64,000 nt of DNA from an uncultured bacterium (GTDB lineage: Bacteria; Cyanobacteriota; Vampirovibrionia; Obscuribacterales; Obscuribacteraceae): assembly GCA_903835185.1 (NCBI GenBank), contig CAILLX010000133.1, positions 6,174 to 70,173 on the forward strand, read 5' to 3'. The translations under genes were made by a program, and so were the position numbers. Shown one piece after another: positions 16,587-47,150 of this stretch; position 1 is the first letter of the stretch, and the number at the start of each line of letters is the position of its first letter. The notes under the pieces are model-generated. The model was not told where the DNA came from. It saw only the letters and a program-made list of their open reading frames with translations, and searched no databases.

Positions 16587-16718
16587 TAATTGCGCGATGA
16601 GCAAATTGGTTGCGCGAAAACTAAAATAATTGCGCGCAGCTTGTGATAATTGCGCGCAAAGGGACAAAAACAGCTTACAATTGGGAGTAATTGCGCGCAA
16701 ACGCTAAATAATTGCGCG
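16587..16718 (+). promoter_or_regulatory. array of six phased copies of ATAATTGCGCG(CAA), a palindromic core, upstream of the wHTH-Fic gene
   Basis: TGCGCG cores start at 16591, 16611 (degenerate copy), 16631, 16651, 16692 and 16713, giving spacings of 20, 20, 20, 41 and 21 bp. Copies 3-5 contain the perfect palindrome TTGCGCGCAA. The last copy abuts the AAAGGAG RBS of ATG 16731. Confidence 0.7.
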
Positions 16719-16730
16719 AAAGGAGCGTGC

Positions 16731-18104
16731 ATGACGAAGCCGATACCAGCAGAAGGGTTCAACATCATCAAGGATGTCTTAAAAGCACACCCGAATGGCA
16801 TAACGCTCACTTCTATTGCCGCAGCCTTACGCGTAAAGGTTTCGCGGCGAACACTGCAATATCGTCTGCGCCACCTTGTCGACAAAGGAAGGGCTGTTGC
16901 CGAGGGCAAAGGACGTGCAGTGAAGTATCGCTCGGCGGACTCAACAACCGCCCTTGCTATAGCGCCGGCAGAAGCTGAGTTGCTGCCGTTGTCAGAACAG
17001 GCAAAAGAAATTCGCCAGCTTGTTTCACAGCCGCTAACCAAACGGAAGATCGTCGGCTATAACAGAGACTTTCTTGATTCATACCGACCCAATGCAACTG
17101 CATATCTAACTGTTGCTGAGCGTACACGCTTACATGACACAGGTACTGTTCCATTCGCCAACCAACCTGCGGGTACATACGCGCGCAAAATCTTTGACCG
17201 CTTGCTTATCGATCTTTCTTGGAACTCAAGTCGTCTGGAAGGAAACACCTATACGAAGCTGGACACTAAACGCCTTATCGAGTTTGGCAAAGAAGCGGAA
17301 GGCAAAGATCGCATAGAGACGCAGATGATCCTTAATCACAAAGATTCAATTGAATTTCTTGTGAGTGCAGCTGACGAAATCGACTTCAACAGATACACTC
17401 TTCTGAACTTGCATGCCTTGCTTGCAAACAACTTATTGTCGAATCCCAAAGCTGAAGGCAGACTTCGCTTTATCGAAGTGGGCATCGAGCAATCTGCTTT
17501 TCAGCCTCTTGCCATTCCACAGCTTATTGAAGAATACTTCGAACAGATCTTGAACACCGCACAAGCAATCACAGACCCGTTTGAACAATCGTTTTTTGTC
17601 ATGGTACAGCTGCCATATCTGCAACCTTTTGATGATGGGAACAAACGCGTTTCGCGGCTTGCTGCAAACATCCCACTAATCAAGGCGAATCTCATTCCGC
17701 TTACCTTCTTAGATGTGTCAAAGGATTTGTACACTCAAGCCATCCTGGGAGTATATGAATTCAACCGCATAGAGCTACTCAAGGATATCTATCTGTGGGC
17801 TTATCAGCGTTCAGCAGAGCGCTATGCCGCCGTTCGACAATCACTTGGTGAACCTGATCCATTCAGACTCAAACACAGAGAAGCGCTCCGTCAGGTTGTT
17901 GGGACAGTTATACGCAGCCAATACACCCGGGAAGAAACATTGAAGTATCTGGAGGTATGGAGCGCTGAAAATCTGCCGGCAGACGAACGTGAGAAATTTA
18001 TTGAGGAGTCCGAAGACGAGCTTCTTGCGTTGCATGAAGGCAATTTTGCCCGTTATAAAGTTCGTCCTTCTGAATTCGATGCATGGCGAAAAGTTTGGGA
18101 CTAG
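16731..18104 (+). CDS. Fic-family protein with N-terminal winged-HTH and a degenerate active-site motif
   Basis: wHTH-like N-terminus (ITLTSIAAALRVKVSRRTLQYRLRHLVDKGR), inhibitory-helix-like SSRLEGN, and Fic core LQPFDDGNKRVSR (Gln where the catalytic His is expected, GNKR instead of GNGR). The ATG at 16731 has a good RBS; the track start at 16650 lies inside the operator array. Confidence 0.8.
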   Translation: MTKPIPAEGFNIIKDVLKAHPNGITLTSIAAALRVKVSRRTLQYRLRHLVDKGRAVAEGKGRAVKYRSADSTTALAIAPAEAELLPLSEQAKEIRQLVSQPLTKRKIVGYNRDFLDSYRPNATAYLTVAERTRLHDTGTVPFANQPAGTYARKIFDRLLIDLSWNSSRLEGNTYTKLDTKRLIEFGKEAEGKDRIETQMILNHKDSIEFLVSAADEIDFNRYTLLNLHALLANNLLSNPKAEGRLRFIEVGIEQSAFQPLAIPQLIEEYFEQILNTAQAITDPFEQSFFVMVQLPYLQPFDDGNKRVSRLAANIPLIKANLIPLTFLDVSKDLYTQAILGVYEFNRIELLKDIYLWAYQRSAERYAAVRQSLGEPDPFRLKHREALRQVVGTVIRSQYTREETLKYLEVWSAENLPADEREKFIEESEDELLALHEGNFARYKVRPSEFDAWRKVWD

Positions 18105-18111
18105 TCGAAGC

Positions 18112-18393
18112 TGTATCCAGTCAGCCCTGGGCCGCCCAAGAGTCGATACGCTCAAGGACAGCAAATTACCCAATCTCAAAAAACTGCGTTTTTTCTACAA
18201 AGGAGCTCCAATCAGGATCCTATTTGCTTTCGATCCAAAGCAGCAAGGAGTAATCATTGTGGGAGGAGACAAAACAGGGGATAATCTAGTAGCAACATTC
18301 CCGAACTCAAAACCTGTGAAGATTTCCCATATTGGCGATCTTAACGAAACCGGCACAGACGAGGGCGGAGATGGGAAATTGGCGCAAGGCTAG
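18112..18393 (+). pseudogene. remnant of a RelE/ParE-superfamily (Gp49-like) toxin gene
   Basis: LGRPRVDTLKDSKLPNLKKLRFFYKGAPIRILFAFDPKQQGVIIVGGDKTGD matches the central block of this toxin family. About 40 N-terminal residues are missing because the frame runs into the Fic gene with no plausible start. The C-terminus diverges, and no antitoxin gene follows. Confidence 0.55.
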
Positions 18394-18684
18394 GACACTT
18401 ATCGGGCTGCGTTTCATCTTGAGACCTCAGCCTTTTCCCGCAAATGTGGAAGGATTGATCTGAATTTTTGTTTTTACGCATTTATTCTCCTCAGGAATCT
18501 AACCGGCCATAGAACCGTTGTCTTCGGCCAGCGCTGTCAGGGTTTTATTTCTCGCGAGGCAATGCGCAATTGTCGTTCATCACAAGAGACCAAAATAGGC
18601 AATTCGTATTTTCACCCATGACACCCTGAACTGGAGCAGCCATAATTCTTGAGGGCGCGATCTGTAGGGCAATACGAAATAAAA

Positions 18685-21426
18685 ATGGCCGATATTATCC
18701 ACGAGCGAAGCAAAGCAGCAGAGAGCTCTATTCTTGCTGACTTTGCTCGCTCTATTGCTTATTCCGCAGTAGTTCAGCCTCTAAATGGAGTAGTGCAACT
18801 GGGTGCCAAACTGTGCGGCAAAGACGTTGAGCAGTGGAGTTGCTTGCGTCCTGAGAATCCCGATAGCTGGGCGGCCAAAGTTGGCGGTGCTATCGGTATG
18901 GCTGTCGATTTCTGGGCAATTAACAAACTGACAGGCGGAGAGGCAGCACTGTCACAGATGCCTTCCCTGACCAAGTCTGTTAGTCGAGCGGCAACTGTTG
19001 GAGCTCTTTATGACGGACTTGCCGTGCCGATAGCCGATCCTCATGGCAGTTTGGCATCATTTGCCGCGCAAAGAGGGCAGAACGCCATCGTTGGCGGCCT
19101 TACATTTGCCTCTCTTGATGGAACATCTCGACTGCTGCCAGCGCTGCCTGGATTGAACAAGCTGGCTCGGAACAATACAATCTTTACACGCGGTCTATTC
19201 GGAGCATTATCTGGATTGCCGGCTGGCATTGTCAATGCTGAGACTCATTCGCTAGTTTTCCAACATCAGTTCACAACTAATGTTGGCAGTTCTATCAGGG
19301 ACTTCTCAGTTATAGGTGGTGTGCTTGGAGTGTTGCCCCACACCGAGCGGCCAGATGCCAAAGAGTCAAGGCGCGCACAAGAGAGCAATGCTGTCCAACA
19401 TGAGGAAACACCTACTGCAAAGCAAGCAACTGCCTCAGAGGCGACTCTGGGACCAGAACATGTTTCCTGGACTAAAAATCCGCAGGTGATTGCACGCCTG
19501 TTGCAAGCAGGCGATGCAAAGACTGCCGCCCAGCTGGCTTCACTTGTGTCTTCCCGCCCTGACTGGCAGCCGACTATCGAGCAAGAGGTTATACGCGGTG
19601 CCGCTCCGCAACTGCTCCGCAGCTGGGACAGATTGAAGGCGCTTACTGGGCTCGCAAAGCACATTCAGCTAGACTCACCGCTCATGCAGAAGATTTTTGA
19701 CAGCGAAGCAACTGATAGATTCGCTATGCAGAAGATGGCTGCATTCATAAACGCGGATCCGGCAACCAGACTACCTCTTTTAGAACGTGAGGCAGCAAAA
19801 GGGAAAAGAGAGCTTCTCGGGGCAGATCGTCTCTCCGGTCTAGCCAAACTGGAGGAGTACTTCCAATCAGACAACAAGACATTGAAGCACATTCTGCAAA
19901 TGGAGAAAGCCGATGGTTTGGACCTAAAGCAACTGGCAGAATTCATAGACCTGGATCCCAAAAATTTCGCACCTTTTATAGCAGGGCGCATTCAGGCAGG
20001 AGAAACGGACAGCGAGCTGGGTGAATACGTTGCTTATTCTCATCCGTTCGGAAGCCTGGCTCAAGCTTTTTATGACGACATACCAGCCCTCTTGCGCATT
20101 AGACAACTAAAGAAGGAACTTGACCTTGAACACCTGATGAAGTTTGTTGATATCGACACGAGTCAAGGACAAGGCATGGCATCCACGTGGGTAACAGCCG
20201 AAGGTCGTCGCAGTCTGGTTTCCCGAGAGCTACGCCGCGGAGCCACTGCAGATCAGCTCAATTCGTATTACCGCATGCGCGGGCTCGAGCAACTCGAACG
20301 TGAATTTCCACCAGGCTCTGATATGCACAATCGGCTACTAAGAATGGAAGCGCGTGACGGTTTGAGTCTCTGGAACCTCGGCAAGTATGTCGGCGATTGG
20401 ACAGAAGCACGCGCTACCGCTGTGAAGCAAGAAATAGAGAACGGCGCTCCAGTCAAGCAGATCGAGGACCAGGTTAAACTTGCCGCTTTCCCCACAGATG
20501 TCGCTGTGAAGCTGTCCAAACAGGCAGGTCGAGGCACAGTACAAACCGATGAACTTGTCAGTGCTTTGCTGGACTTACAGACTGGACCTTACATGCAACA
20601 ACTTGTACGAGTGCATGTGGAAAAAGGTAATGTTCTGACCACAAAGGATTTAGAGCGCTTCGGCAACGAGGCACGACTACTCTTTGAGTCCAAGGCACCA
20701 CTGGCTACGAATGTCGAGAGCTGGACACCGCAAAGCCGTCTGCGTTTGCCAACCGAGACAGACCGCACTGTCGCTCATATGGCTTCTAGCGTGAGGCAAG
20801 CTGCCCAGGGCATAATGGACAGCCTGCCGCCCAATAAAAGCATGGTACTACTCGGGCGTGATATGGGTCCTCTGCTGGCCATATTGAGAGCTTCCGGGCG
20901 TGACGTGCGCTATTTCCTCTGGAGCCGCTCTCAGAATGGGGATGCAAGCACAGCTGCCCAATGGCAGAAAGAAGTGCCACCGCAGGCAGTGGTAATCGAT
21001 GCCGGCTTATCCGGAAGTATTTTTGACAATATCCGCAAAACGGACGCTAACATTGAGCCATATCTCATGCAAAGCGCAGGACGCTATCCTCAATTCCCAG
21101 TCAATATGGACGTAGCCGCAAATGATGTCGAGCTCTTTCCGAAATTAACAGGACGTAGCTTGGGCTTCAAACCGGACGGCACTGCCATTGCACCAGATAC
21201 AAGCTTGGATGCTCAGGATTTTCACGACGCCAATCATAGACAGGAAGCCGTGCAATACAATTCCCAGCTCTTGCGAGATCTCGGACTGTCTGATTGGTGG
21301 GTATGGCGGTATCAGACCTTTACCGGCATAGCCCCATCCGAGCGCATTGGCATTACAGACGGACAGAAGCTGGCTCAAGAATATTCCAGAATTAAAGATC
21401 TGCGCAATAGCTCGCAAGCGCACTAG
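18685..21426 (+). CDS. large orphan protein (913 aa from ATG 18685) with a Gly-rich hydrophobic N-terminal region and about four internal ~70-aa repeats
   Basis: Long uninterrupted ORF. Repeated block: MQKIFDSEATDRFAMQKMAAFINAD / LKHILQMEKADGLDLKQLAEFIDLD / LLRIRQLKKELDLEHLMKFVDID / NRLLRMEARDGLSLWNLGKYVGDW. No P-loop or other catalytic motif recognised. Confidence 0.6.
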   Translation: MADIIHERSKAAESSILADFARSIAYSAVVQPLNGVVQLGAKLCGKDVEQWSCLRPENPDSWAAKVGGAIGMAVDFWAINKLTGGEAALSQMPSLTKSVSRAATVGALYDGLAVPIADPHGSLASFAAQRGQNAIVGGLTFASLDGTSRLLPALPGLNKLARNNTIFTRGLFGALSGLPAGIVNAETHSLVFQHQFTTNVGSSIRDFSVIGGVLGVLPHTERPDAKESRRAQESNAVQHEETPTAKQATASEATLGPEHVSWTKNPQVIARLLQAGDAKTAAQLASLVSSRPDWQPTIEQEVIRGAAPQLLRSWDRLKALTGLAKHIQLDSPLMQKIFDSEATDRFAMQKMAAFINADPATRLPLLEREAAKGKRELLGADRLSGLAKLEEYFQSDNKTLKHILQMEKADGLDLKQLAEFIDLDPKNFAPFIAGRIQAGETDSELGEYVAYSHPFGSLAQAFYDDIPALLRIRQLKKELDLEHLMKFVDIDTSQGQGMASTWVTAEGRRSLVSRELRRGATADQLNSYYRMRGLEQLEREFPPGSDMHNRLLRMEARDGLSLWNLGKYVGDWTEARATAVKQEIENGAPVKQIEDQVKLAAFPTDVAVKLSKQAGRGTVQTDELVSALLDLQTGPYMQQLVRVHVEKGNVLTTKDLERFGNEARLLFESKAPLATNVESWTPQSRLRLPTETDRTVAHMASSVRQAAQGIMDSLPPNKSMVLLGRDMGPLLAILRASGRDVRYFLWSRSQNGDASTAAQWQKEVPPQAVVIDAGLSGSIFDNIRKTDANIEPYLMQSAGRYPQFPVNMDVAANDVELFPKLTGRSLGFKPDGTAIAPDTSLDAQDFHDANHRQEAVQYNSQLLRDLGLSDWWVWRYQTFTGIAPSERIGITDGQKLAQEYSRIKDLRNSSQAH

Positions 21427-21710: not shown

Positions 21711-22316
21711 ATGGCGTTGGAAGACAAGCAAAAGACAACAAATATCAGCCTTCGCATCCCAGAGGAGTACAGAAAGCGCTTGCAGCTGCAAGCCGACAAG
21801 AAAAGTATAAGCTTCAACGCACATCTTCTGCGCATTCTGGAAATACATCTGATGAGCTCCGGCTTCGGTCCAACTTCACTCACTTCAGCCAGCGGAAGAC
21901 TGTTTCAGATCAGATGTGAGCCATATCTGGATAATGTAGATGAAACTACCTGGGCTTTCTTTGTCGACGAGCCTAAATTTGAGAAAGAGCGTGCCTATTA
22001 TCTGATCGGTATAGGACGAACAGTTTTGCGAGACTGGCAGGTAAAAGATAAAGTGACAGTATCCAAAGAAGTGGGACTGGCACTTCTTAACTTTTATAAC
22101 CGCCAGGGTATGGAAATAGATAAACTGAGCTGGAATCAATATACAGGACCGGAGGCTGATGGGCGCCGCATCTTGCAAGTAGCAGAGTTACCAGAGACAC
22201 TGGAGCAGTTTTTAGATCTCCTGATAGCGGGCAGCTGGACAGACAGGTTTGTCCAGCAATTGGACCAAAGTCAGGATCTTCGCCGCGGTCGGCCAGAGTC
22301 GGCTTTGTACCGCTAA
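21711..22316 (+). CDS. Arc/MetJ-type ribbon-helix-helix domain fused to an unknown ~150-aa C-terminal domain
   Basis: N-terminus TNISLRIPEEYRKRLQLQADKKSISFNAHLLRILEIHL has the beta-strand/helix/helix pattern of Arc-like RHH repressors. The remainder has no recognisable motif. Start chosen at ATG 21711. Confidence 0.55.
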   Translation: MALEDKQKTTNISLRIPEEYRKRLQLQADKKSISFNAHLLRILEIHLMSSGFGPTSLTSASGRLFQIRCEPYLDNVDETTWAFFVDEPKFEKERAYYLIGIGRTVLRDWQVKDKVTVSKEVGLALLNFYNRQGMEIDKLSWNQYTGPEADGRRILQVAELPETLEQFLDLLIAGSWTDRFVQQLDQSQDLRRGRPESALYR

Positions 22317-22407: not shown

Positions 22408-22500
22408 AAATACCGTTCACTTAAGCCGCTGGAACAACTGCAGGGGCGGCTCGCGAGCCGCCCAGAGGGCGCGTCCCGACGCGCCACTACGCCCGTTGGT
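22408..22500 (+). repeat. REP/REPIN-like palindromic element, copy 2, about 100 bp upstream of the patatin-TIR gene
   Basis: AAATACCGTTCACTTAAGCCGC...GCAG+GGGCGGCTCGCGAGCCGCCC...GGGCGCGTCCCGACGCGCC+ACTAC. It shares both hairpins and the left arm with the other copies. Confidence 0.75.
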
Positions 22501-22604
22501 GCGAGCCTGGTTACTACAGGAGTATTATATGAATAGTAGTGGAACAACACTGGTCAGGAAATGCCAGTCACGGTGCTGCTGCACGACAAGCATCCGGTGA
22601 GCGT

Positions 22605-24458
22605 ATGTCGAAGCTATGGCGCATCTTATCTATAGACGGTGGCGGGATCAGAGGATTGATACCGGCCACAATTCTTTCTGTCATTGAAGAACGCACAGGC
22701 AAACCGATTGCTCAGCTTTTCGACATAATTGCCGGCACATCGACCGGAGGTATTCTGGCGCTGGGACTGACCAAACCGGACCAGTGCGGTCACCCTGAAT
22801 TTGCTGCCCGTGCTCTAAGAGACGCTTATGAGAAGGCAGCCCCCCACATCTTTCACAACCCAGCGTCCTGGTGGGAAAACCTGTTGCGTCCAAAGTATGT
22901 CTCATCATCTGGTATTAACCAGGTCATGCAGCGCTACTTTGGTGATGCCAGATTGAAAGACGCGTTGACAGACATTCTCATCCCCTGCTACGACATAGAG
23001 CACCGCTCGCCACACATATTTAAGAGTCACTGGGCAAGACGACAGCAGCAGTATGATTTCCCTATGAGCGACGTGGCGTGCGCTGCTGCCGCCACACCAA
23101 CTATGTTCGAGCCTGTGCGCTTGGCCAGACCTGGTGCTGGCGGGCATATGTCACTGGTAGACGGCGGAGTCTTTGCCAACAATCCGTCACTGCTTGCCCT
23201 GGCTGAATTAAACAGAATGTTCGCAGCCAAAGATGACGATTTCCTCGTCGTCTCCCTGGGAACTGGCGAATCGATGGAGATGATGACACGGAAGTATTTC
23301 AGCGATTGGGGTTATGTTCGCTGGTCAATCCCGATGATTGAGCTCGTCTCTGAAAGTGGCAGCGAATCTGTGCATGAACAGATGCGTTATCTGCTGCCGG
23401 CAACCGAATATCAACGATACTACCGCTTCCAGGTCGACCTGCCAGACAACGTGTATTACCCGCTGGACAATCCGTCCAAGAGAAACATGAGCGGACTGGT
23501 TAACGCAGCCGAAGAGCTGCTTGCTGACAGGCAGACTGAAAAGGAGATTAATACGCTCTGCAAACTGTTGTCTTCGAGCCAGCAACAGCAACAGTATGTT
23601 GAACTGCTCGAGCGGATTAATCAACAGTCCCGCGCAACAATACCTGTCGAAAATAATCTAGCACTAGATATGCAAGCCTGCTTTCAAGACGATGGACTGG
23701 GAAGGGAACCGGCTTATAAAACAAATTCATCTCGTCCTGGAAAGTTAAACTCCTGCGGTGAGAGTAAATACAAGCTGGTCAAAGGAACCTGTCAGCCGGC
23801 AACAGCGGAGAGCCTCAGTGTGTATGAATCTGCCTGTCTCTCACGGATTAAAGATTGCAAGGTGGTGCTTTGCTACGCTGAAGAAGATCTTGACGTAGCT
23901 CGCCCACTTGCTGATGCTCTGGCAACAAGGGGAATTAAGACAGTATTTGAGAAGTTCGGCACACAACCAAAGGAGAGCATTCGCCGCCTTGTATCACACG
24001 CAGCAGAGAGATCTCTTATCAGCATTGTCGTTCTCAGTCCGGCATTGTTGAAAAACACCTGGGCATCAAAGCCGCTTGAATGGCTCTACTCCAGAACACT
24101 TGGTGGGAAAAACGTGATCCTGCCGGTGATGCACAAGTTCGGGCAGAAGGATGTGGCATCTCTAGCACGCCATCTCCGCTGGCACAAAATGGCGTTAAAG
24201 TACTGGGAGTATCTGCTGGATCCTGCAGAAGGCACTACAGCGGCCGGAATTGCACCATTGGCTAACCATCTGGCTGAGGAGATAAAGCTCTGGCTGGCAG
24301 CAGGGAACCAGAACACCAGCAACTGTGATCTGCAAAGCGAGGACATCGTAACAGCTAGCAGTGCCACTAATGGAGAGCCAGCACACAACCCAAACAATGT
24401 CACTCTCAAGGAATCTCAAGCTCCACCTGTCCAGTGCGCCATGACAGACGAGTTCTAA
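22605..24458 (+). CDS. patatin-like phospholipase fused to a C-terminal TIR domain
   Basis: Patatin motifs: oxyanion DGGGIRG, nucleophile GTSTGG, catalytic Asp VDGGVFANNP. A poly-Gln linker (SSSQQQQQY) follows. TIR-like C-terminus VVLCYAEEDLDVARPLADALATRGIKTVFEKF...SLISIVVLSPALLKNTWASKPLEW...ILPVMHK. ATG 22605 is preceded by GGTGAG. Confidence 0.85.
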   Translation: MSKLWRILSIDGGGIRGLIPATILSVIEERTGKPIAQLFDIIAGTSTGGILALGLTKPDQCGHPEFAARALRDAYEKAAPHIFHNPASWWENLLRPKYVSSSGINQVMQRYFGDARLKDALTDILIPCYDIEHRSPHIFKSHWARRQQQYDFPMSDVACAAAATPTMFEPVRLARPGAGGHMSLVDGGVFANNPSLLALAELNRMFAAKDDDFLVVSLGTGESMEMMTRKYFSDWGYVRWSIPMIELVSESGSESVHEQMRYLLPATEYQRYYRFQVDLPDNVYYPLDNPSKRNMSGLVNAAEELLADRQTEKEINTLCKLLSSSQQQQQYVELLERINQQSRATIPVENNLALDMQACFQDDGLGREPAYKTNSSRPGKLNSCGESKYKLVKGTCQPATAESLSVYESACLSRIKDCKVVLCYAEEDLDVARPLADALATRGIKTVFEKFGTQPKESIRRLVSHAAERSLISIVVLSPALLKNTWASKPLEWLYSRTLGGKNVILPVMHKFGQKDVASLARHLRWHKMALKYWEYLLDPAEGTTAAGIAPLANHLAEEIKLWLAAGNQNTSNCDLQSEDIVTASSATNGEPAHNPNNVTLKESQAPPVQCAMTDEF

Positions 24459-24469
24459 AAATTTTGTCT

Positions 24470-25285
24470 TTAGCGATCTGGCGTTAACGCAGTTGCATCG
24501 CTTATCCTGACAGGTGGGTGATTATCTGTTTGAACGATAGCATCATGAAGTTTAAAGCGAGAGATGAGCCATGGAGTATAGGTGCCACGACGCTCCATCA
24601 TCAGCTGCAAGACAACAGAATTAAGACGCGGCAGAAGGCTTGCCACCTGCTGGCGAGCCATTTTATTACCGGAAGAAGTGACAACCTCACCTGCATCACG
24701 CGGGAAGAGGCAACGAATAGTCTTAGCTATCTCAGCATCCTCCGGCTTAAGCAGCTGCGGCTTTACCAGTCCAGGCTCCAGAGATTGTCTTAAGCGCCAG
24801 GAGAAAGCTTTATTCTTGTCTATGTCAGGATGGCTGACAAACTTCTGCAATGACATCTCATCCATTCGCTCGCCAAAAGCCATTGGTACAGGCAGAAGCA
24901 AAGGACTGTATACACTCGACTCAAAAGTGAGCGGCAGATCAACAGCAAAACAGACCGGCTTCTCCCAGGGCAACAGATAAGGAAACTGCTTTGGCACTTT
25001 GCTGGCTGTCACCCGGCCTACTTGACAGCGGCACCCGAGCATGAATGTCAGATTGGGATCCAGCCCTGAACCCAAGTTGAGATAACCACCATAACCACCT
25101 TTGGGCGGGCAGGAACATGTCACATCACCAAAGAAAGGGATGATTGCAGTTGTGTTACCTGCTTGAACTGCTTTTACAAACGCCAGCCCTGTCTGCTCAG
25201 GAGCAACGCCCAGCCTGTCAGAGTAGAGAACAAAAAGTACGACAGCGCCACAAAAAGCAAAAAGAAGAAGATAAAGCACTTTCAT
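24470..25285 (-). CDS. hypothetical membrane-anchored protein
   Basis: ATG 25285 is preceded by AAGGGTGGG. N-terminal TM helix MKVLYLLLFAFCGAVVLFVLY, and no recognisable domain. Convergent with the patatin-TIR gene, with an 11-nt gap. Confidence 0.45.
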   Translation of the reverse strand: MKVLYLLLFAFCGAVVLFVLYSDRLGVAPEQTGLAFVKAVQAGNTTAIIPFFGDVTCSCPPKGGYGGYLNLGSGLDPNLTFMLGCRCQVGRVTASKVPKQFPYLLPWEKPVCFAVDLPLTFESSVYSPLLLPVPMAFGERMDEMSLQKFVSHPDIDKNKAFSWRLRQSLEPGLVKPQLLKPEDAEIAKTIRCLFPRDAGEVVTSSGNKMARQQVASLLPRLNSVVLQLMMERRGTYTPWLISRFKLHDAIVQTDNHPPVRISDATALTPDR

Positions 25286-25359
25286 CAACAACCCACCCTT
25301 TGGCGGCAAACACTAAGTTATACTACTGCTGACTTCTACTTTTGAGGAGCTTCTCAGTA

Positions 25360-26808
25360 ATGTCAACGCTGTCAACAGGGACTCTGGTGCTGTTTGCACT
25401 CGCTGCGCTTATAGCGTTTCTTGTACCTTTTATCCGGGAGGCTGCCTACAAGCAGCTGACCTGGTTGCCGGAATGGCAGGCTGTAAAGCGATTTGCTGCA
25501 GTCCTTTTACCGTTCTTGCTATTAGCTTTATTGGCGCAGTATTTTAAGATTGCTGCCGGTGATGCTCTTCGTTATTTAGCAGCCGGGGCACTTGTGCCAT
25601 TTTTCTTAGCCCGCTTAAGCCTGCCAGCACGCCTCAATGGAATCATCCTCCTTGCTATGACTGTGGCACTTACTTGTCTTGTCAAAGATGCAACCGCTGT
25701 CCCTGCCTGCTTTGCTCTTATCTGCGGGGCAGCTGTATGGAAAGTAAGCGAGAACCTGCTCATAGGAGCAGTCTCTTCAGTAGAAGATATTCTGCCAGCG
25801 CTTATCTGGCTGGTAGGAGTCAATTGGGTAAGGACAGCCTTGCCAGAAGCTCAATGGTTGTCGCATGACGGAATCCTGCTAGCAACTCTGTCTGTAGTGC
25901 TCATAATAAGGACAGTGCAAAACAGGTTTGTCTGCTTAGACAAGCTGTTTGTCAAGCGGATCCTTTTAGCAGTAGCAGGAGGAGCAGGAGTTCTTCTTGT
26001 CATGAACAAGCTGCTGCTCTTGCCGCTACAAAACTCTCTTTGCCCGCTAGCTGCTCTAATTGGAGCCGGAATTCTAGTAAGCTATCTCTTGGAAGGTTTA
26101 AAGAGTACAGAGGCGCCAAGCGGACAATCACAGCTCACTTCCGCAGTAAGCATACTTGTTCTTGTAGGTATTTTGACTCTTGTATCAACACGCCTTTTTG
26201 GCAATTTCGGGCTGCTGGCAGTAGCTCCAACTATGCTTTTAGGTAGTGCCGAAAGCTTTGCTCACCCGGCAGCACTATTCCTGGTGGCACGCGGTTTGCT
26301 TCAGGGTTATACATTGACATATGTGCAAAATGTCACAGGAGTCAACCTGACTCACCCTTATACAACAGCAGCTCTTTTTGCCGGTTTTCTACTTTCCGGA
26401 CTGGCAGTCGCTACATTGCGCGATATAAGTCAGAGACGCTGGTGCGTGACAATCATACTGGCGGCAGGCGGCTTAACTCCTCTCTTGTCTAACTTCTTCC
26501 TGCACGAAGAGCCTACCGGCAGCCTCTTGATCTCAACCACAACAGCAGCAGTAATGCTGGCAGCGCTTGGACCGGCTCTCTGCCGCACCAATGTGTCACA
26601 GCAATCCAACCTCCTTTTGCTACCGCTGCTTATGACCGCTTTTGCTCTCTGGAGTCACGAATTAATTGAGCTGGGTAACGCCGGCACTGGCGTTGACAAG
26701 ATAGTAATTCTTCTCTATTGTGCCACTGCAGTAATAGTATTCTCCGGACTGCTTTACTGGTTGTTCTCCCGCTTAGCGAGGCAGCAGGTAGAGGTCGCGG
26801 GAGACTAG
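25360..26808 (+). CDS. polytopic integral membrane protein of unknown function (about 12 TM)
   Basis: GAGGAG RBS before ATG 25360. The sequence is almost entirely hydrophobic helices. Confidence 0.6.
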   Translation: MSTLSTGTLVLFALAALIAFLVPFIREAAYKQLTWLPEWQAVKRFAAVLLPFLLLALLAQYFKIAAGDALRYLAAGALVPFFLARLSLPARLNGIILLAMTVALTCLVKDATAVPACFALICGAAVWKVSENLLIGAVSSVEDILPALIWLVGVNWVRTALPEAQWLSHDGILLATLSVVLIIRTVQNRFVCLDKLFVKRILLAVAGGAGVLLVMNKLLLLPLQNSLCPLAALIGAGILVSYLLEGLKSTEAPSGQSQLTSAVSILVLVGILTLVSTRLFGNFGLLAVAPTMLLGSAESFAHPAALFLVARGLLQGYTLTYVQNVTGVNLTHPYTTAALFAGFLLSGLAVATLRDISQRRWCVTIILAAGGLTPLLSNFFLHEEPTGSLLISTTTAAVMLAALGPALCRTNVSQQSNLLLLPLLMTAFALWSHELIELGNAGTGVDKIVILLYCATAVIVFSGLLYWLFSRLARQQVEVAGD

Positions 26809-27543
26809 CTGCTGGATGTTACCATCTGTGCGAAACACATCCACAAGCAGCTTTTCATCTGTCCTGCAACGCACAAATGTGTGCACACTATCTGCTGCTG
26901 GCAGGCAAGCAAAACGACTGCTCAACAGCTGAATTGTAAGTGCACTGCGATCCACCCGACAAGCAATCATGACAGGATTGCCTGTACTGTTCAAAAAGCG
27001 TAGATCACAGCGCCCGTACCAGACAGTAGCATCTAACCCGGGCGGCACAGTATGCACAGGGCGTGTGTGAGCAGTTCGCTCTGCAATCACCAGTCCACCT
27101 GCTAACACAGTTTGATAAAGAGCAGATGAGAGGCAACAGATGCCCCCACCAACAGAATGAGTGGTCTGGGCGCCTATATAAGTGCCGGCTGAACAATAAC
27201 CACGTTCGACAGTGCGCGGACCGACTCTAGCGTTAAAAGAAAAGACCGCTCCGGGAGCCAGGACTGTCCCGTCTATAGCATGTGCTGCAAGGCAAATATT
27301 AGTCCTCTGAGCAGAACTGAGCTCATTTACAGAGACACTCTTTGAGACAAGAGGACGGGAAAACGGATCGAATAGCCACAGACTGAGCAGAAGCAACAGC
27401 GGCACAAGCCAGATAGAATGATCTGCCAGCGATACTGTCCTGCCACCGAGCCGGGCTGCCACATCACATATAAATGCATGCATTTTGCCTCTGGAGCCGT
27501 ACCTGTTGGTCTCTCCCGCTCCCACGTCACCTCCTGCCGTCAC
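26773..27543 (-). CDS. VanW-family protein
   Basis: N-terminal TM segment, then FSFNARVGPRT..RGY and VGGGICCLSSALYQTVLAGGL...ERTAHTRP, as in the VanW domain. The GTG start overlaps the A2M stop (GTGA). Confidence 0.75.
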   Translation of the reverse strand: MTAGGDVGAGETNRYGSRGKMHAFICDVAARLGGRTVSLADHSIWLVPLLLLLSLWLFDPFSRPLVSKSVSVNELSSAQRTNICLAAHAIDGTVLAPGAVFSFNARVGPRTVERGYCSAGTYIGAQTTHSVGGGICCLSSALYQTVLAGGLVIAERTAHTRPVHTVPPGLDATVWYGRCDLRFLNSTGNPVMIACRVDRSALTIQLLSSRFACLPAADSVHTFVRCRTDEKLLVDVFRTDGNIQQLVSRDLYLLPR

Positions 27544-30500
27544 TCTACAACTTTTAAATAATCCAGAGGTGAATAAGCTCGCACCCGCTTGGTGTACATA
27601 CCTTCAACTGACATCGGGTTGATCTGGAAGGTACCGGGCATCTCGAGACGCACCAGAGTCCAGAACTCATGTTTGCCAGCCGGCAGGCTGGTCACGAAAA
27701 AGACAATGCGGTCATCCAGGATATCCTGATGTGTCCACCACAAGTCGCCCCAGTCACCAGTAATGCCAGAGGCACCGCTACTGCTGGACTCCACCATCTC
27801 TTTGCGTGAATCATCTTCCACTACTTCCGCACCGCTGGGCAACGCTGCTTCCAATATGACGTAGGGCAAACGTACTGGCGCCTCGACATTGACCTTCATC
27901 AGCACAGTCTCGCCTGCATGTATTACATGATCAGTGATTGCTTCAGTGTTGTAATGAATTGAGCCGTCCGACTTGACAGCATTTGGCTTCAGCCTGAAGA
28001 ACTGGCGCTCCAGGTGAACGCCTTGCGGCATTGATTTTTCAACAGCCTGATCACCAGGCAACAGATGTCGCATATAAGTAAGCAGGCTTGAATAGTAGAG
28101 TCGCCCCGGACCTGTCTTCTTAAGCAGCAACTCAGCCGGTGAGCTTGGCACTGGAACAGCAAGAGTCTCTTCAGGAGCATACGCACTGCGCTCGCCAAAA
28201 GTCAGGTTGGTCAAAGCGGTGCCTGCTAGTGTTGCAACCAGGGAGAAGTCCGGCTTTCCGTGCGAGCGTGCTTTCAATTCCTCATTAAGGAGGGCTACAA
28301 AGACCTCTGCTGTGGTCTTTGTATTCCCCCAGCCGTCGCGGTCACGGTTAAGCAGAATCCAGTTCTTTATCGCTTCAATCTTATCGGAGGCACCAGGTTC
28401 AGCAGCTAGAACAGCCTCAAGCGCCAGTGCTGTTGTCTCAACTCCTGTAAAACGGTAGCTGTATGGCACAAACTCCCCAGAAGCACTCCTGGCACTGAAG
28501 CGCTTAAGCAATGACTCACGGTGATCCCAGTCCATCATATTGTCATTAACGTAAGCCAGGCTAATGAGCCGTTTGTAGAAGAGGTTAGCGTTGGTGCTAT
28601 CGCCGCTTTGCAAGCAGGCTCTGGTCAGACAAGAGAGCGCCTCCGGTGTCAGTTTTCTGTTTACTGCCTGCAGCTGCTTCACCATTGCCGTAGCCGGGTG
28701 CTGCCCATAAAGACTCATGACATGCACAGCTTTAGCAATATCAATATAAATTTCCTGCTCTGAATAATCGTTGCGTAACAACTTAGGATCATTAAGCTGC
28801 TTGAACACAGCTGGTAACGACCTGGAAAGCCAGTTAAGCGCTTTGTTTGTCCTTGACTTGTCGACCTCCCGTCCACACTGTCTGAGCAGGTAATAACCCT
28901 CCAGAACGTGCGCAGTTAGATATATGTTGGAGCTGTCATTTTCCCACCAACCCCAGCCGCCATCGCTGTGCTGATAGTCATCCAGTTTCTTCACAGAAAG
29001 GTCATAAACTTTCTTGAACTTCTCTGACATCCCTTTATCCAGAGGCACACCAAGAGCTTGATTTAAGCGGATGGCAACTACTGACGGCATAAGGCGACTC
29101 ATAGTCTGTTCTGTGCAACCGTACGGATAGTCGATGAGCTTGCTGAAATTGCCTAAAACAGGTCCAATTGATGAAGCTGCCAGCGAAAGTTGATATTTTG
29201 CTGTCGCAGGAACAGCATCGCGGGAGAGCCCAACAGGCAGAACAGCCTCGCTAGAGTCCAAAGACAAAACGCCAGATTTGGCTGCAAAAGCCGGCAGACC
29301 AAGAGGACGCACCGGGATTTTGCGTTCAATGGCATCACCTGCTGTCTGCCCTACTGCCTTGCAGAAGATAGTGCTTTGTCCAGATCCAACAACCTTAATA
29401 GGCCACTCTATACGCTCAGCTGCTTCAGGAGCAATGCCACGATCTTGCACAAGCGGCTTGCTCACCTCGAACTGAGGCGGAGACTCCAGAGTCACTTTAA
29501 CTTTTTGAGTCTTGTCTGTGTAATTGTGTACAACAGCGCTGATGACACCAACATCACCTTCAGTAAAGAAACGTGGCAGAGCAAGTCTTAAAATTAAATC
29601 TTGCGTAGAGACAATCTTGCTTATAGCCGCACCCACATTAACAGCCAGATCGATACCACGTACTGTGGCACGCCAGGTTGTGAGATTATCGGGCAACTTG
29701 ATGGTAGCAGTTGCTACACCGTCAGAATTAGTCGTGAGCGCCGGAACCCAGGCAGCTGTATCGCGAAAGTCTTTCCTGACCCTGGGTTCAATCTTGTCCG
29801 GACCTCCAGAGTATTGTTCCGGGAAGGAGCACAAAGTATTGACACTATTGTATTTGCGGCTGTAGAAAAACTTCTGGATATTTTCGGCTGTTTCAGCACG
29901 AATGGCATAGATGCTCTCATCCACTACACCCAATGACACTTCTGTATTGGGTGCCGGTTTGCCATTGGCAGAAGTGGCATGAATAGTGTATTTGACACTG
30001 TCGCCAGGTTTGTACTTTGTCTTATCTGTTTCAACTGTTATGGTCAAGAAATGCTCTGCAGGAGAGACCTTAATCATCTTTGATTGAGTATAGAACTGAC
30101 GATCAGGTGCTACGACAGCCACACTGACAAAAACATCAGGCTCACATTCAGCTTTAATAGGCACCTCAACCAGCTGTGCAGTCGAAGTCATAGGAACAGT
30201 TCTATAGTTGAAAATATGTGATCCTTCTATCGAAACTATCGCCTCGGCTCCTTCAGTGCCTGTAAAAGGACCGCTAACCATCACCTTAGCTGTCTCGCCA
30301 GGCTTATAAATACTCTTGTCCAGCCTGACAGTGAGGGGCTCTTGATGAGCATCTTCACCGGCGAGCATATAAGGTGCAGACTGGTTGGCAATCCACAAGC
30401 TACTTTCGTCATAGACTATATGCCCGCTCTGGTCCACAGCTTGAGCAGTCACGTAATAAGTATCAGTCGGTAAAGCACCTTTGGTAGGGAAAGAGAGATG

Positions 30501-32573
30501 TCCCCCTCCGCGTTCATCTGTCGCGATTGTGTACTCCTTTTCAATTTCACGAGCACGATAGCTGTGTGCAGCTGCATCCCACGGCCAGCGTACCAACCGC
30601 ACAGTCACCTTCTGATTAGCCACCGGTTTGCGATCATAATCGACTGCGTTAAAGTCGATAGAGAGCCTCTGTCCTGATTTGACAACTGATGAGGTAGGCT
30701 GCACAAATACAGCGAAATTACCTGCCGTGACAGTTGCATAGCCGCTGGAAATCACACTCATACGGCTCAAATCAGTAACTTCAGCTTCAATCTTATAACG
30801 CTTATCAAGATACTGGGCGCCAAACGGATGAGATGTATCCGGCTCAATTGGCTGTGAATCAAAAGTAATTGTTGCTACACCGTTATCGTCTGTCTGGGCG
30901 TAACCTTCAGTGACAAAGTTGTTGCCATAACTGTCGTAATAATAGGATGAACCGCCATCCTCTTCGCCCCAGTCATCGAAATAACCGTAATAGCTTGGTC
31001 GTGCCATGAGGCGATAACGAGAAGACCAGTCTGTTGAAGAGTAGACTGAATACTTCACGCGAGCATTGCGTACCGGACCGCCAAAATAATATGTAGCATG
31101 CACGTGTGCTGTCACTTTCGCACCTGCCACCACTCGCGGTTGCGCCGGCAACACTTCCACTTGATATTCTGGTTTGCGATACTGGCTGACTTCAAAGCGT
31201 TCATAAGCTTTAGAGCCGTCAGGATAAGTAAACGTCACCTGGTAGGCTCCTGTCTTGCCCTCATCAGGAATATTAATTGTCCCGTTTACAGTGCCATGAT
31301 CGTTGGTTCGCAGATGTTGTTCAGTAAGTTTGTTATTGTCAGGATCTTCAACAACTGCTTGCACAGTAAGTCCTGTTTTGGGAGTCTTGTACCCAGCTGC
31401 TACCGACTTGCGGATAATAGCTTTATAACAGACTGTCTGTCCAAGTCTGTACACTGGGCGATCTGTATAAAAGTAGGTTTGATAACTATCTGCTCGATTA
31501 GAAAAATACCAGGCAGCTCCATAAGCATGCTGGTTGCCGATTGTGCCTACCACCATCAAATTCCGGCTCTCGTCACCTTGCGGACTGGGGAGCGAGACAA
31601 AGCCATCGACAGCTGTGACCCCGGTTGCCATAGGCTTACCTACTGCTGACTGACTGACCAGATACATGGAAACTTTTACGCCTTGTTTAGCATGCAAGCT
31701 CCGCAGGTCAACTGCACGCACCAGCGTGCGATCAGGAGCTTGCTTAATCACCAGCCCTATGTCTGTGACAGCAAACCACATAAAGTTGCGGTCAACCTTA
31801 CCCTCCATATTGGTCAGCTCTGCTACAGCAAAATAATCGCCTGGGGCAAGCGGCTTCGTAAGCTTAAAGTCAGCACGAGCAGAGTCGTTGTCATCCAGAG
31901 AGAGCTCCCTGGACAAAGTGGCTACAGGAGCTCCAGCGGCAATAAAATTAACTACTTCAGCTCCGGAGCGGTAGAACTGCAACTCAGCTGAAAGGTCAAG
32001 CCCGTTGTCTCCCCAATCTCTTTCTGTTAGCAAAGAAAGAAAGTCTTTACGATATAGTTTCACCTTGGCGTGCATACCGCCGGAGGCGTTCAGCCAGAAG
32101 TGCGGCAGCTCGGCTGTTGTAAACACACGTGTATTTGAAGCAACAGTGACAGACGGCTGAAGAACATTCATGGCAATAGTCTTGGGCAGAGCAGTCGTTT
32201 TGCCTTCGTCAACAAAAATGCCGCTTTCATGCTCAGTTGAGTAGCCCGGTGCATGTGCTTTTAAAGTGTATTCACCTACAGGCAGGTGGTCTATACGGAA
32301 GGATCCATCTGGTGTCACCCAGACACCACGTTCTATCGTCTGGTCACCGCGTGGTCCCTGAGCCACTGCATAAACTTTGTTTTGCCGAATGTCATAAGAA
32401 AAAAGATGGAAGTCTGTCTTTTCAAGCGCAATCCGCCCGGCAAGAGATCCTGTCGGTTTAGCCAGGCTCAAAATTAAGATGCCAAAGAGAACGAGCTTTA
32501 ATAATGTCAAGTAGACCGGTAAGAAAATATCTTTTTCGCTCTTGACCAACGACTTTGTTTCACTGGTAGACAT
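27540..32573 (-). CDS. bacterial alpha-2-macroglobulin (thioester-containing, YfhM/ECAM-like)
   Basis: 1677 aa with an N-terminal signal/anchor and many Ig-like MG-domain repeats. Thioester motif YPYGCTEQTMSRL, alpha-helical TED region (DGGWGWW), and C-terminal receptor-binding-like domain. Confidence 0.9.
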   Translation of the reverse strand: MSTSETKSLVKSEKDIFLPVYLTLLKLVLFGILILSLAKPTGSLAGRIALEKTDFHLFSYDIRQNKVYAVAQGPRGDQTIERGVWVTPDGSFRIDHLPVGEYTLKAHAPGYSTEHESGIFVDEGKTTALPKTIAMNVLQPSVTVASNTRVFTTAELPHFWLNASGGMHAKVKLYRKDFLSLLTERDWGDNGLDLSAELQFYRSGAEVVNFIAAGAPVATLSRELSLDDNDSARADFKLTKPLAPGDYFAVAELTNMEGKVDRNFMWFAVTDIGLVIKQAPDRTLVRAVDLRSLHAKQGVKVSMYLVSQSAVGKPMATGVTAVDGFVSLPSPQGDESRNLMVVGTIGNQHAYGAAWYFSNRADSYQTYFYTDRPVYRLGQTVCYKAIIRKSVAAGYKTPKTGLTVQAVVEDPDNNKLTEQHLRTNDHGTVNGTINIPDEGKTGAYQVTFTYPDGSKAYERFEVSQYRKPEYQVEVLPAQPRVVAGAKVTAHVHATYYFGGPVRNARVKYSVYSSTDWSSRYRLMARPSYYGYFDDWGEEDGGSSYYYDSYGNNFVTEGYAQTDDNGVATITFDSQPIEPDTSHPFGAQYLDKRYKIEAEVTDLSRMSVISSGYATVTAGNFAVFVQPTSSVVKSGQRLSIDFNAVDYDRKPVANQKVTVRLVRWPWDAAAHSYRAREIEKEYTIATDERGGGHLSFPTKGALPTDTYYVTAQAVDQSGHIVYDESSLWIANQSAPYMLAGEDAHQEPLTVRLDKSIYKPGETAKVMVSGPFTGTEGAEAIVSIEGSHIFNYRTVPMTSTAQLVEVPIKAECEPDVFVSVAVVAPDRQFYTQSKMIKVSPAEHFLTITVETDKTKYKPGDSVKYTIHATSANGKPAPNTEVSLGVVDESIYAIRAETAENIQKFFYSRKYNSVNTLCSFPEQYSGGPDKIEPRVRKDFRDTAAWVPALTTNSDGVATATIKLPDNLTTWRATVRGIDLAVNVGAAISKIVSTQDLILRLALPRFFTEGDVGVISAVVHNYTDKTQKVKVTLESPPQFEVSKPLVQDRGIAPEAAERIEWPIKVVGSGQSTIFCKAVGQTAGDAIERKIPVRPLGLPAFAAKSGVLSLDSSEAVLPVGLSRDAVPATAKYQLSLAASSIGPVLGNFSKLIDYPYGCTEQTMSRLMPSVVAIRLNQALGVPLDKGMSEKFKKVYDLSVKKLDDYQHSDGGWGWWENDSSNIYLTAHVLEGYYLLRQCGREVDKSRTNKALNWLSRSLPAVFKQLNDPKLLRNDYSEQEIYIDIAKAVHVMSLYGQHPATAMVKQLQAVNRKLTPEALSCLTRACLQSGDSTNANLFYKRLISLAYVNDNMMDWDHRESLLKRFSARSASGEFVPYSYRFTGVETTALALEAVLAAEPGASDKIEAIKNWILLNRDRDGWGNTKTTAEVFVALLNEELKARSHGKPDFSLVATLAGTALTNLTFGERSAYAPEETLAVPVPSSPAELLLKKTGPGRLYYSSLLTYMRHLLPGDQAVEKSMPQGVHLERQFFRLKPNAVKSDGSIHYNTEAITDHVIHAGETVLMKVNVEAPVRLPYVILEAALPSGAEVVEDDSRKEMVESSSSGASGITGDWGDLWWTHQDILDDRIVFFVTSLPAGKHEFWTLVRLEMPGTFQINPMSVEGMYTKRVRAYSPLDYLKVVE

Positions 32574-47003: not shown

Positions 47004-47150
47004 AATACCGTCTGTAGGGCAGCTGTAGGTGCGGCTGCAGGGCGGCTGTAGAGGCTGTAGAGGCTGTAGGGAGGCTGTAGGGAGGCTGTAGGGAGGCTGT
47101 AGAGGCGGCTCGAGAGCCGCCCGCCGAACGCGTCTAAACGTCTCGGTATT
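47004..47150 (+). repeat. REP-like unit with an internal tandem expansion (nine CTGTAG-type units of 9-12 bp, 47012-47108)
   Basis: AAATACCGT left arm. Units in order: CTGTAGGGCAG, CTGTAGGTGCGG, CTGCAGGGCGG, CTGTAGAGG x2, CTGTAGGGAGG x3, CTGTAGAGGCGG. Then GGCGGCTCGAGAGCCGCC hairpin, a degenerate second hairpin, and the CGGTATTG right arm. Confidence 0.8.

Follow-up and report, generated by a model that had tools for sequence, protein, structure and literature searches.

Does a bacterial protein that joins a patatin-like phospholipase to a TIR domain carry two enzymes, or one enzyme and the switch that governs it? The question is raised by a gene of an uncultured bacterium of the Obscuribacteraceae (order Obscuribacterales), which lies in the 64,000-nucleotide stretch of DNA analyzed here and called the window below (contig CAILLX010000133.1 of assembly GCA_903835185.1, positions 6,174 to 70,173 of the forward strand). 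A first-pass annotation had read the encoded fusion as two lethal chemistries in a single polypeptide, membrane lysis by the lipase and NAD+ cleavage or signalling by the TIR domain, and had proposed either that the TIR domain is an oligomerisation or sensor switch for the lipase or that its nucleotide product gates the lipase in cis. We found an intact lipase site and a TIR domain that has lost both the catalytic glutamate and the BB-loop glycine of the TIR NADases. The first of the two proposals is the one that we prefer: the fusion would be a single-activity phospholipase governed by a non-catalytic TIR domain through assembly or ligand sensing, a reading to which we give close to, though less than, an even chance.

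The fusion reading frame is unbroken from the ATG at 22605 to the stop codon at 24456-24458. The longest variant of this open reading frame (ORF) opens at a GTG at 22539; the homologues all begin at the equivalent of M1 in the family alignment (MxxxWRILSIDGGG), and database protein P0001 is the window protein itself, differing solely in its upstream GTG start (639-aa form). An exact look-up of that longer form returned no contig that encodes it. On the window protein both Pfam models scored above their cutoffs, Patatin over residues 8-198 (E-value 4e-23, 82.9 bits against a cutoff of 27.7) and TIR_2 (PF13676) over residues 420-529 (E-value 5e-12, 46.7 bits against 28), and Foldseek confirmed both folds, so that the two domain assignments made at first pass stand. 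An AlphaFold2 model was built from a 35-sequence family alignment (predicted template-modelling score, pTM, 0.70). Its confidence is high in the lipase and moderate in the TIR domain, and residues 223-252, 350-409 and 569-617 are disordered. The features of the gene, with the local confidence score (pLDDT) where it defines them, are as follows.

22605-24458, plus strand: patatin-TIR fusion gene, 617 amino acids, stop codon included in the coordinates (ORF list, translation, family alignment)
22611-23567, plus strand: patatin/CapV-like phospholipase domain, residues 3-321 (PADLOC, NCBIfam, Pfam, Foldseek)
22635-22655, plus strand: oxyanion loop DGGGIRG, residues 11-17 (read from the sequence; conserved in the family)
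22734-22748, plus strand: nucleophile elbow GTSTG with Ser46 (all 34 members covering the site have GTSTG or GTSIG)
23157-23168, plus strand: VDGG with the catalytic Asp186 (D186, G187 and G188 in 35 of 35 members)
23529-23636, plus strand: long terminal helix of the lipase domain, residues 309-344, with a non-conserved QQQQQ (AlphaFold secondary structure, alignment)
23652-23831, plus strand: disordered low-complexity linker, residues ~350-409 (pLDDT <50; mean pairwise identity 0.18)
23859-24302, plus strand: TIR domain of the AbTir/PdTIR/TcpB type, residues 419-566, predicted to be non-catalytic (Pfam TIR_2 5e-12, phmmer, Foldseek)
24072-24074, plus strand: Pro490, at the position of the TIR catalytic glutamate, AbTir E208 (ungapped HMMER alignments; MAFFT with the 12 nearest TIRs)
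24078-24080, plus strand: Glu492, the glutamate named at first pass, which aligns to AbTir D210 (alignment)
24309-24455, plus strand: low-complexity C-terminal tail, residues 569-617 (pLDDT <50)

A search of 5.8 billion protein clusters led to the identification of about 36 clusters that carry both domains, at 41-73% identity; patatin-only proteins of ~340 aa rank next. Among the 35 aligned members the mean pairwise identity is 0.63 in the lipase and 0.44 in the TIR domain, far above that of the linker, which indicates that both domains are under purifying selection. The fusion is a genuine architecture and no assembly artefact, both domains being kept across the 35 homologues at 45-73% identity. 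The linker itself was first put at ~180 aa. It exists, but its length was overstated because the Pfam patatin model is short: the lipase fold extends to residue ~321-344 and the disordered linker measures ~60-75 aa, while the whole stretch from residue 322 to the start of the TIR domain varies from 21 to 132 aa across the family. Likewise the poly-Gln run assigned to the linker is present (five Gln, 326-330) but falls within what is predicted to be the last helix of the lipase domain, and the family does not conserve it. Long C-terminal tails occur only in the window protein and its nearest relatives, P0002, P0007 and P0024, and most members stop at about W563+2.

To which TIR domains is the C-terminal half related, and does it keep their active site? 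By sequence, its closest TIR subfamily is that of AbTir, BtTir, PdTIR and TcpB (E-values 1e-12 to 4e-8), with phmmer matching the TIR region to BtTir (7uxr), AbTir (7uwg, 8g83) and PdTIR (3h16) at 1e-12 to 2e-11. Foldseek returned PdTIR, TcpB/BtpA, AbTir and BtTir for the C-terminal domain with probability 1.00 and target-normalised TM scores (TMt) of 0.73-0.80. The phmmer alignments are gapless from strand beta-C to strand beta-D, where posterior probabilities are maximal, and they set 'llkntWaskPlEwlysR' of the window protein against 'fikkdWtnyEldglvaR' of AbTir. The catalytic residue of AbTir is E208, four residues past W204; the E208A variant is fully inactive and E208D has reduced activity. 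The aromatic W204, four before the glutamate, is required for cyclisation, and the BB-loop variant G174A shows no or very low activity. In the fusion the E208 column (490) is occupied by Pro in the window protein and, over the 35 members, by Gln in 31, Pro in three and Ser in one; none has Glu. The glutamate that the first-pass annotation had placed in the catalytic position is E492, two residues later, in a column (AbTir D210) that varies between Glu (17 members), Ala (10), Gly (5) and Ser (3). At column 456, which corresponds to the BB-loop G174, the window protein has Lys and the family Lys, Glu or Asp, with Gly in 0 of 35. The W204 column (486) keeps Trp in the window protein and holds 23 Trp, one Phe and 11 non-aromatic residues among the 35 members, and S458, the counterpart of AbTir S176, is kept in 21. 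From this alignment, taken together with the published mutagenesis, we infer that the TIR domain is very probably not an NADase.

The loss appears to have happened within this family. The 12 nearest free-standing TIRs, found with the TIR domain alone, are of the AbTir coiled-coil type and all keep W-x-x-x-E-L-(D/N)-G, so the absence of the glutamate is a derived, family-wide feature. Searching 1.84 billion representatives with a TIR-only profile returned just four proteins at E<=1e-30, all of them fusions or fusion fragments, which agrees with the early impression that the architecture is unusual. The fusions scored at least 148 bits, followed by two short fragments at 115 and 108 bits, and generic full-length TIRs reached at most 97 bits. 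As far as these profile scores tell, the Glu-less TIR clade is confined to the patatin fusion.

What remains of the pocket does not look like decay. The AbTir residues S143, K202, G211 and R215 correspond to C423, N484, W493 and R497 of the fusion, and C423, S478, W493, R497 and W563 are invariant in the family. The family-specific pocket positions (C423, S458, N484, W493 and R497) thus look like a retained and repurposed surface. Trp493, in place of AbTir G211, may fill the pocket instead of leaving space in it. One fusion fragment, P0051 (428 aa), has ~80 aa of low-complexity sequence inserted in the TIR domain, after the BB-loop region and before strand beta-C; large changes seem to be tolerated there.

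The original idea of a dual-enzyme suicide effector, with an active TIR NADase or signal synthase beside an active lipase, can be weighed at this point. Both folds are present, the TIR part matches the ThsB and retron-TIR defence profiles, and the window protein has both W486 and E492. Against this, the catalytic column lacks Glu throughout the family, E492 is variable and out of register by two residues, and the BB-loop Gly is missing as well; in AbTir, E208A abolishes activity and G174A leaves none or very little of it. We regard two active enzymes as highly improbable. A TIR domain with neither residue also takes away the basis of the proposal that its nucleotide product gates the lipase in cis.

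The lipase half, in contrast, carries all the elements claimed for it at first pass, with DGGGIRG at residues 11-17, GTSTG at 44-48 and VDGG at 185-188. Everything that defines a patatin-like phospholipase (PF01734) was found: the Gly-rich oxyanion loop, the elbow and catalytic Asp, the profile score and the fold. We predict with high confidence that this half is active. Its relatives are of two kinds. On one side are the lipases of cyclic oligonucleotide-based anti-phage signalling systems (CBASS): the PADLOC profile for CBASS phospholipase effectors matches residues 3-321 at 3e-71, and the NCBIfam equivalog CBASS_lipase/CapV (NF041079) gives 196.2 bits over residues 6-321, below its cutoff of 200. 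On the other side is plant patatin, the best solved-structure match by sequence (E-value 2.5e-35 and 125.5 bits with the single sequence, 5e-53 and 183.7 bits with the family profile). With the same family profile all CBASS lipases score below it (9wn1/9kh6 136 bits, AbCapV 115.7, CapE 77.9). In Foldseek searches of the PDB the lipase matched plant Pat17 at 2e-21 (1oxw, 4pkb; TMt 0.73-0.77) and the CBASS lipases AbCapV (5e-17) and CapE, both as ligand-bound filaments (TMt 0.73-0.78). The near-cutoff lipase half is therefore not demonstrably a CBASS effector.

CapV and CapE (AbCapV 8zr9/9kej; CapE 9ion) share with the fusion their fold and the Ser-Asp dyad, and the full-length CapV profile covers fusion residues 3-321. 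They are activated by filament formation, the mode that we propose here. They differ in that the fusion has no CD-NTase operon, carries an additional C-terminal TIR domain, falls below the CapV cutoff and is nearer to plant patatin. Pat17 (1oxw, 4pk9) has the same catalytic motifs as the fusion, with TMt up to 0.77, but is a plant storage/defence lipid acyl hydrolase with no TIR domain. As far as is known, Pat17 is monomeric.

Is there a partner that makes a signal for the fusion? We surveyed the fusion loci L003, L081/82, L083, L084, L086, L088 and L089/90 with flanks of ~8-10 kb. Of the 80 homologous loci that are nearest among GTDB species representatives, 78 being patatin-only, we also scanned 79, through 94 immediate same-strand ORFs. 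PADLOC and Pfam found no CD-NTase and no Thoeris component among the 50 other ORFs of the window, and neither of these nor a second TIR gene occurs in the flanks of 8 fusion loci. The 25 Pfam families that are most frequent in the 94 same-strand neighbours include no cyclase. When two TIR profiles were run with hmmsearch against the six-frame ORFs of L001-L088 and the window, the fusion genes alone were returned, and no ThsA-type partner, that is a SIR2 or transmembrane domain with a SLOG or Macro sensor, was found in the window or the related loci.

These results bear on two further explanations. The first is that the fusion is a CBASS-type effector orphaned from its cyclase: the CapV-like lipase would still respond to a cyclic dinucleotide that a CD-NTase elsewhere in the genome makes, and the TIR domain would be an accessory. 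The strong PADLOC match and an NCBIfam score just below 200 bits fit it; the failure to reach the curated cutoff, the lack of a CD-NTase in the 64-kb window and beside the fusion loci, the lack of a cyclase among the most frequent neighbour families and the preference of the family profile for plant patatin all speak the other way. We consider it very unlikely. The second is a ligand-gated lipase, in which the Glu-less TIR domain binds, uncleaved, NAD+, an NAD-derived or another nucleotide from an enzyme elsewhere and so switches the lipase allosterically, the whole being a Thoeris- or CBASS-like effector with a degenerate TIR domain as sensor. Here the pattern of conservation is suggestive: Gln at the catalytic position is held in 31 of 35 members instead of drifting, C423, N484, W493 and R497 are invariant or nearly so with S458 in 21 of 35, and in AbTir an NAD+ mimic lodges between two TIR domains and induces filaments. 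However, a signal-making enzyme (TIR, CD-NTase or SIR2) lies near none of the examined loci, the window's own subclade has Pro and not Gln, the W204 equivalent is lost in 12 of 35 members, and Trp in place of G211 may fill the pocket. This explanation is, in our judgement, quite unlikely.

Thoeris itself offers no closer fit. The TIR domain matches ThsB1 (3e-8) and the PADLOC candidate PDC-S66 (7e-16) over the generic TIR core only, and the fusion differs from Thoeris in having neither a ThsA-like partner nor the catalytic glutamate.

How, then, might a TIR domain without chemistry govern the lipase? In the reading that we prefer, a flexible linker joins a patatin-type phospholipase with a Ser46/Asp186 dyad to a TIR domain that would no longer cleave NAD+ and that selection would maintain as a regulatory module. 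The TIR domain would associate with itself or dock on another TIR protein, in head-to-tail assemblies such as those of AbTir, MAL and MyD88, and would thereby draw the lipase domains into a higher-order, filament-like state. This state would open the lipid-binding pocket and switch on membrane hydrolysis, as in CapV and CapE. Dimers and tetramers of CapV have no activity; 3'3'-cGAMP drives CapV into a filament, and this opens its lipid pocket. The residues of AbCapV that contact cGAMP are F147, K149, D159, E207 and R279 (PMC12480259). A cUA-bound CapE filament structure is present in the PDB. Binding of a ligand, without its hydrolysis, by the conserved pocket residues of the fusion TIR domain (C423, S458, N484, Q/P490, W493 and R497) may set the trigger. 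By analogy with these filament-forming lipases, we rate assembly-based gating as possible, at somewhat under an even chance.

The known TIR proteins supply the other half of the comparison. The coiled-coil TIR NADases AbTir, BtTir, PdTIR and TcpB (BtpA) are closest to the fusion TIR domain in sequence and fold. They keep the WxxxE motif and the BB-loop GDS and make 2' cyclic ADP-ribose (2'cADPR), whereas the fusion has Pro or Gln for E208, Lys, Glu or Asp for G174 and an invariant Trp for G211, and a lipase replaces the N-terminal coiled coil. AbTir TIR domains form head-to-tail filaments that resemble the ones built by MAL and MyD88, both non-catalytic adaptors. MyD88 and MAL (TIRAP), whose TIR domains lack the catalytic glutamate and work by cooperative assembly alone, offer a functional analogy; they are animal proteins with no fused enzyme, and TIRAP is a weak sequence match (E-value ~0.02-0.04). 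TIR-SAVED and TIR-STING, of CBASS and type III CRISPR, are likewise two-domain effectors in which filament assembly activates an output domain, but there the TIR domain kills and its partner senses; the fusion is apparently the reverse, with an inactive-looking TIR domain and an enzyme as partner. A more specific version of the preferred reading is an adaptor-type bacterial TIR that has given up NAD+ chemistry and activates the fused lipase by templated assembly, either homotypic or seeded by a TIR sensor. We think this version unlikely on balance, though a serious candidate.

The gene upstream of the fusion raises the question of whether the fusion belongs to lipid metabolism instead.

21711-22316, plus strand: gene of a 201-aa ribbon-helix-helix (RHH) protein (the N-terminus matches the Arc repressor)

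No fold match was found for the C-terminal domain (~140 aa) of this protein. The window and two further loci, L081/82 (79% identity) and L089/90 (89%), have the RHH gene immediately 5' of the fusion, amid flanks that are otherwise unrelated; it stands beside the fusion in the window's subclade only, and five other fusion loci are without it. RHH proteins of 197-201 aa form more than 320 clusters at ~80-89% identity and represent an order-wide core gene of the Obscuribacterales. The RHH protein of the window is 79-87% identical to proteins that bear the names Obscuribacterales, Melainabacteria or Obscuribacter, and this assigns the window to the Obscuribacterales, relatives of cyanobacteria that do not photosynthesise. 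In four independent contexts (L091, L095, L098 and L102, with the RHH gene at ~4001/5001-5603) a fatty-acid desaturase gene lies 45-130 bp 3' of the RHH gene on the same strand, and further lipid-related genes, such as those for a protein with an LPG_synthase_C domain and a PAF-acetylhydrolase-like lipase, lie near some of these pairs. The RHH protein is probably a regulator of membrane-lipid genes. We rejected it as a dedicated partner of the fusion, given that it is the product of a core gene of more than 320 clusters that is usually paired with the desaturase. We also rejected it as a type II antitoxin, the 'HicB family antitoxin' of one NCBI record, since the pairing is inconsistent and most fusion loci have no RHH gene. 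As tested here, the fusion belongs with neither CapV equivalogs, TIR NADases, Thoeris nor toxin-antitoxin pairs.

This neighborhood supports an explanation in which the fusion is a housekeeping or stress-adaptive enzyme of membrane-lipid remodelling that trims acyl chains or turns them over, co-regulated by the RHH protein, its TIR domain serving as an interaction or localisation tail and with no part in killing or immunity. Consistent with it, the fusion occupies in three loci the slot that the desaturase takes in four contexts, its flanks hold ordinary metabolic genes and no defence islands, and the lipase is most similar to plant patatin. Yet the RHH adjacency is restricted to one subclade and probably reflects a single evolutionary event, five fusion loci being without the gene. 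The patchy occurrence of the fusion (~36 clusters, where the RHH gene has more than 320) is typical of accessory genes, and a constrained TIR domain on a housekeeping lipase is left unexplained. We hold this explanation to be rather unlikely.

Several observations weigh against the preferred reading all the same. Gln or another residue at position 490 might support a different chemistry. We saw no enrichment in defence islands, and PADLOC on 98 neighbouring ORFs gave generic matches only (IscS-like SspA/DndA, TPR and one weak SduA). Our survey of the window and of 8 fusion loci turned up neither a trigger nor a partner of the fusion. Within the subclade of the window, the fusion sits in the slot that a fatty-acid desaturase takes elsewhere. 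By the scores given above, the patatin subfamily is nearer to plant patatin than to CapV or CapE, and that it would need to oligomerise is an inference from analogy with these two.

For the biological role, immunity and membrane-lipid homeostasis are roughly even in our view; we lean slightly to an effector that damages membranes when stress or infection triggers it. The lean to immunity comes from the patchy distribution and the homology to defence effectors, while the lack of defence neighbours and the desaturase slot favour homeostasis. The desaturase slot is the sole contextual hint, and it points toward membrane-lipid biology. Apart from the RHH gene, the flanks differ at every fusion locus and consist of ordinary metabolic or regulatory genes.

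A last alternative is an exported effector against eukaryotic cells, with a patatin like ExoU or Rickettsia Pat2 and a TIR domain that mimics host adaptors like TcpB/BtpA. The lipase half is 27-38% identical to patatins of Wolbachia phage WO (KX522565.1, HQ906662.1 and MN180251.1) and of Rickettsia, Paracaedimonas and Megaera plasmids, none of which has a TIR domain, and TcpB/BtpA is among the best structure matches of the TIR domain. On the other hand, neither a signal peptide nor nearby secretion-system genes are evident, and the family is confined to the Obscuribacterales, for which we know of no host association. We judge an exported effector to be as improbable as the dual enzyme.

The fusion clusters all come from metagenomes or metagenome-assembled genomes (MAGs), their named sources being Candidatus Obscuribacterales/Melainabacteria and one 'Oculatellaceae' third-party annotation (TPA) MAG. 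TPA MAGs labelled 'Oculatellaceae cyanobacterium' (L003, DATNPX010000020.1; protein P0420) carry the fusion together with the Obscuribacterales core RHH protein at ~80% identity; they may in truth be Obscuribacterales bins that were given the wrong taxonomic name. Among plasmid and phage records, none covers >=80% of the fusion protein. We found no description of a patatin-TIR fusion in the literature, there is no full-text match for 'patatin-TIR', and public records name the protein merely 'patatin-like phospholipase family protein'.

The window has no Rfam family and no tRNA, and the 5' spacer of the fusion gene folds no better than shuffled sequences (z = -1.0). This spacer contains, at 22441-22495 and just 5' of the fusion gene, a GC-rich double hairpin (GGGGCGGCTCGCGAGCCGCCC...GGGCGCGTCCCGACGCGCC) resembling repetitive extragenic palindromic (REP) elements. 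Related copies lie at ~47100-47150 and ~600-650; the first hairpin (18 nt, <=3 mismatches) has three matches against 0.04 expected. The orthologous spacer of L081 is without the element and measures 33 bp against 265 bp. At 47012-47102, 8.5 tandem copies of an 11-nt unit (CTGTAGGGAGG) adjoin one REP-like copy.

Two Fic-domain proteins are encoded, at 16650-18104 and 59681-60805 (both plus strand); one window Fic protein matches the SoFic defence profile at 6.8e-43, probably that of 59681-60805, the 16650 gene reaching merely 5e-12. An ORF for a Gp49/HigB-like toxin (17989-18393, plus strand) overlaps the end of the first Fic gene. Together these genes hint that the DNA 4-6 kb upstream of the fusion contains a small variable region. 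Large ORFs without a Pfam or PADLOC family lie at 18649-21426 (plus strand, 925 aa), 24470-25309 (minus strand, 279 aa), 25342-26808 (plus strand, 488 aa) and 76-2898 (minus strand, 940 aa). The 925-aa and 279-aa genes flank the RHH-fusion pair and have a counterpart in none of the related loci compared. A VanW-like gene (26773-27543, minus strand) adjoins the gene of a 1677-aa protein (27540-32573, minus strand) that is alpha-2-macroglobulin-like as judged by sequence, no profile match having been seen. Both are commonplace cell-envelope genes, and housekeeping genes make up what is left of the window, among them those for the Lpt transporter, the shikimate pathway, CarA and a glucanotransferase.

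The fusion carries two cautions for annotation: a nearby glutamate is not enough to turn a TIR profile match into an NADase, and a match to the CBASS lipase profile close to its cutoff does not amount to a CBASS system when no cyclase accompanies it. To our knowledge, all bacterial TIR proteins characterised so far are enzymes that consume NAD+, and TIR domains that serve only as scaffolds are regarded as an animal speciality. If it proved true, an adaptor-type TIR domain in the Obscuribacterales would be a prokaryotic counterpart of MyD88 and MAL and would reverse the logic of TIR-SAVED and TIR-STING. The fusion would also bear on whether patatin lipases outside CBASS are gated by assembly. 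In all, a Glu-less yet selected TIR clade that is always fused to an intact lipase would offer a test case for signalling by TIR assembly alone in bacteria.

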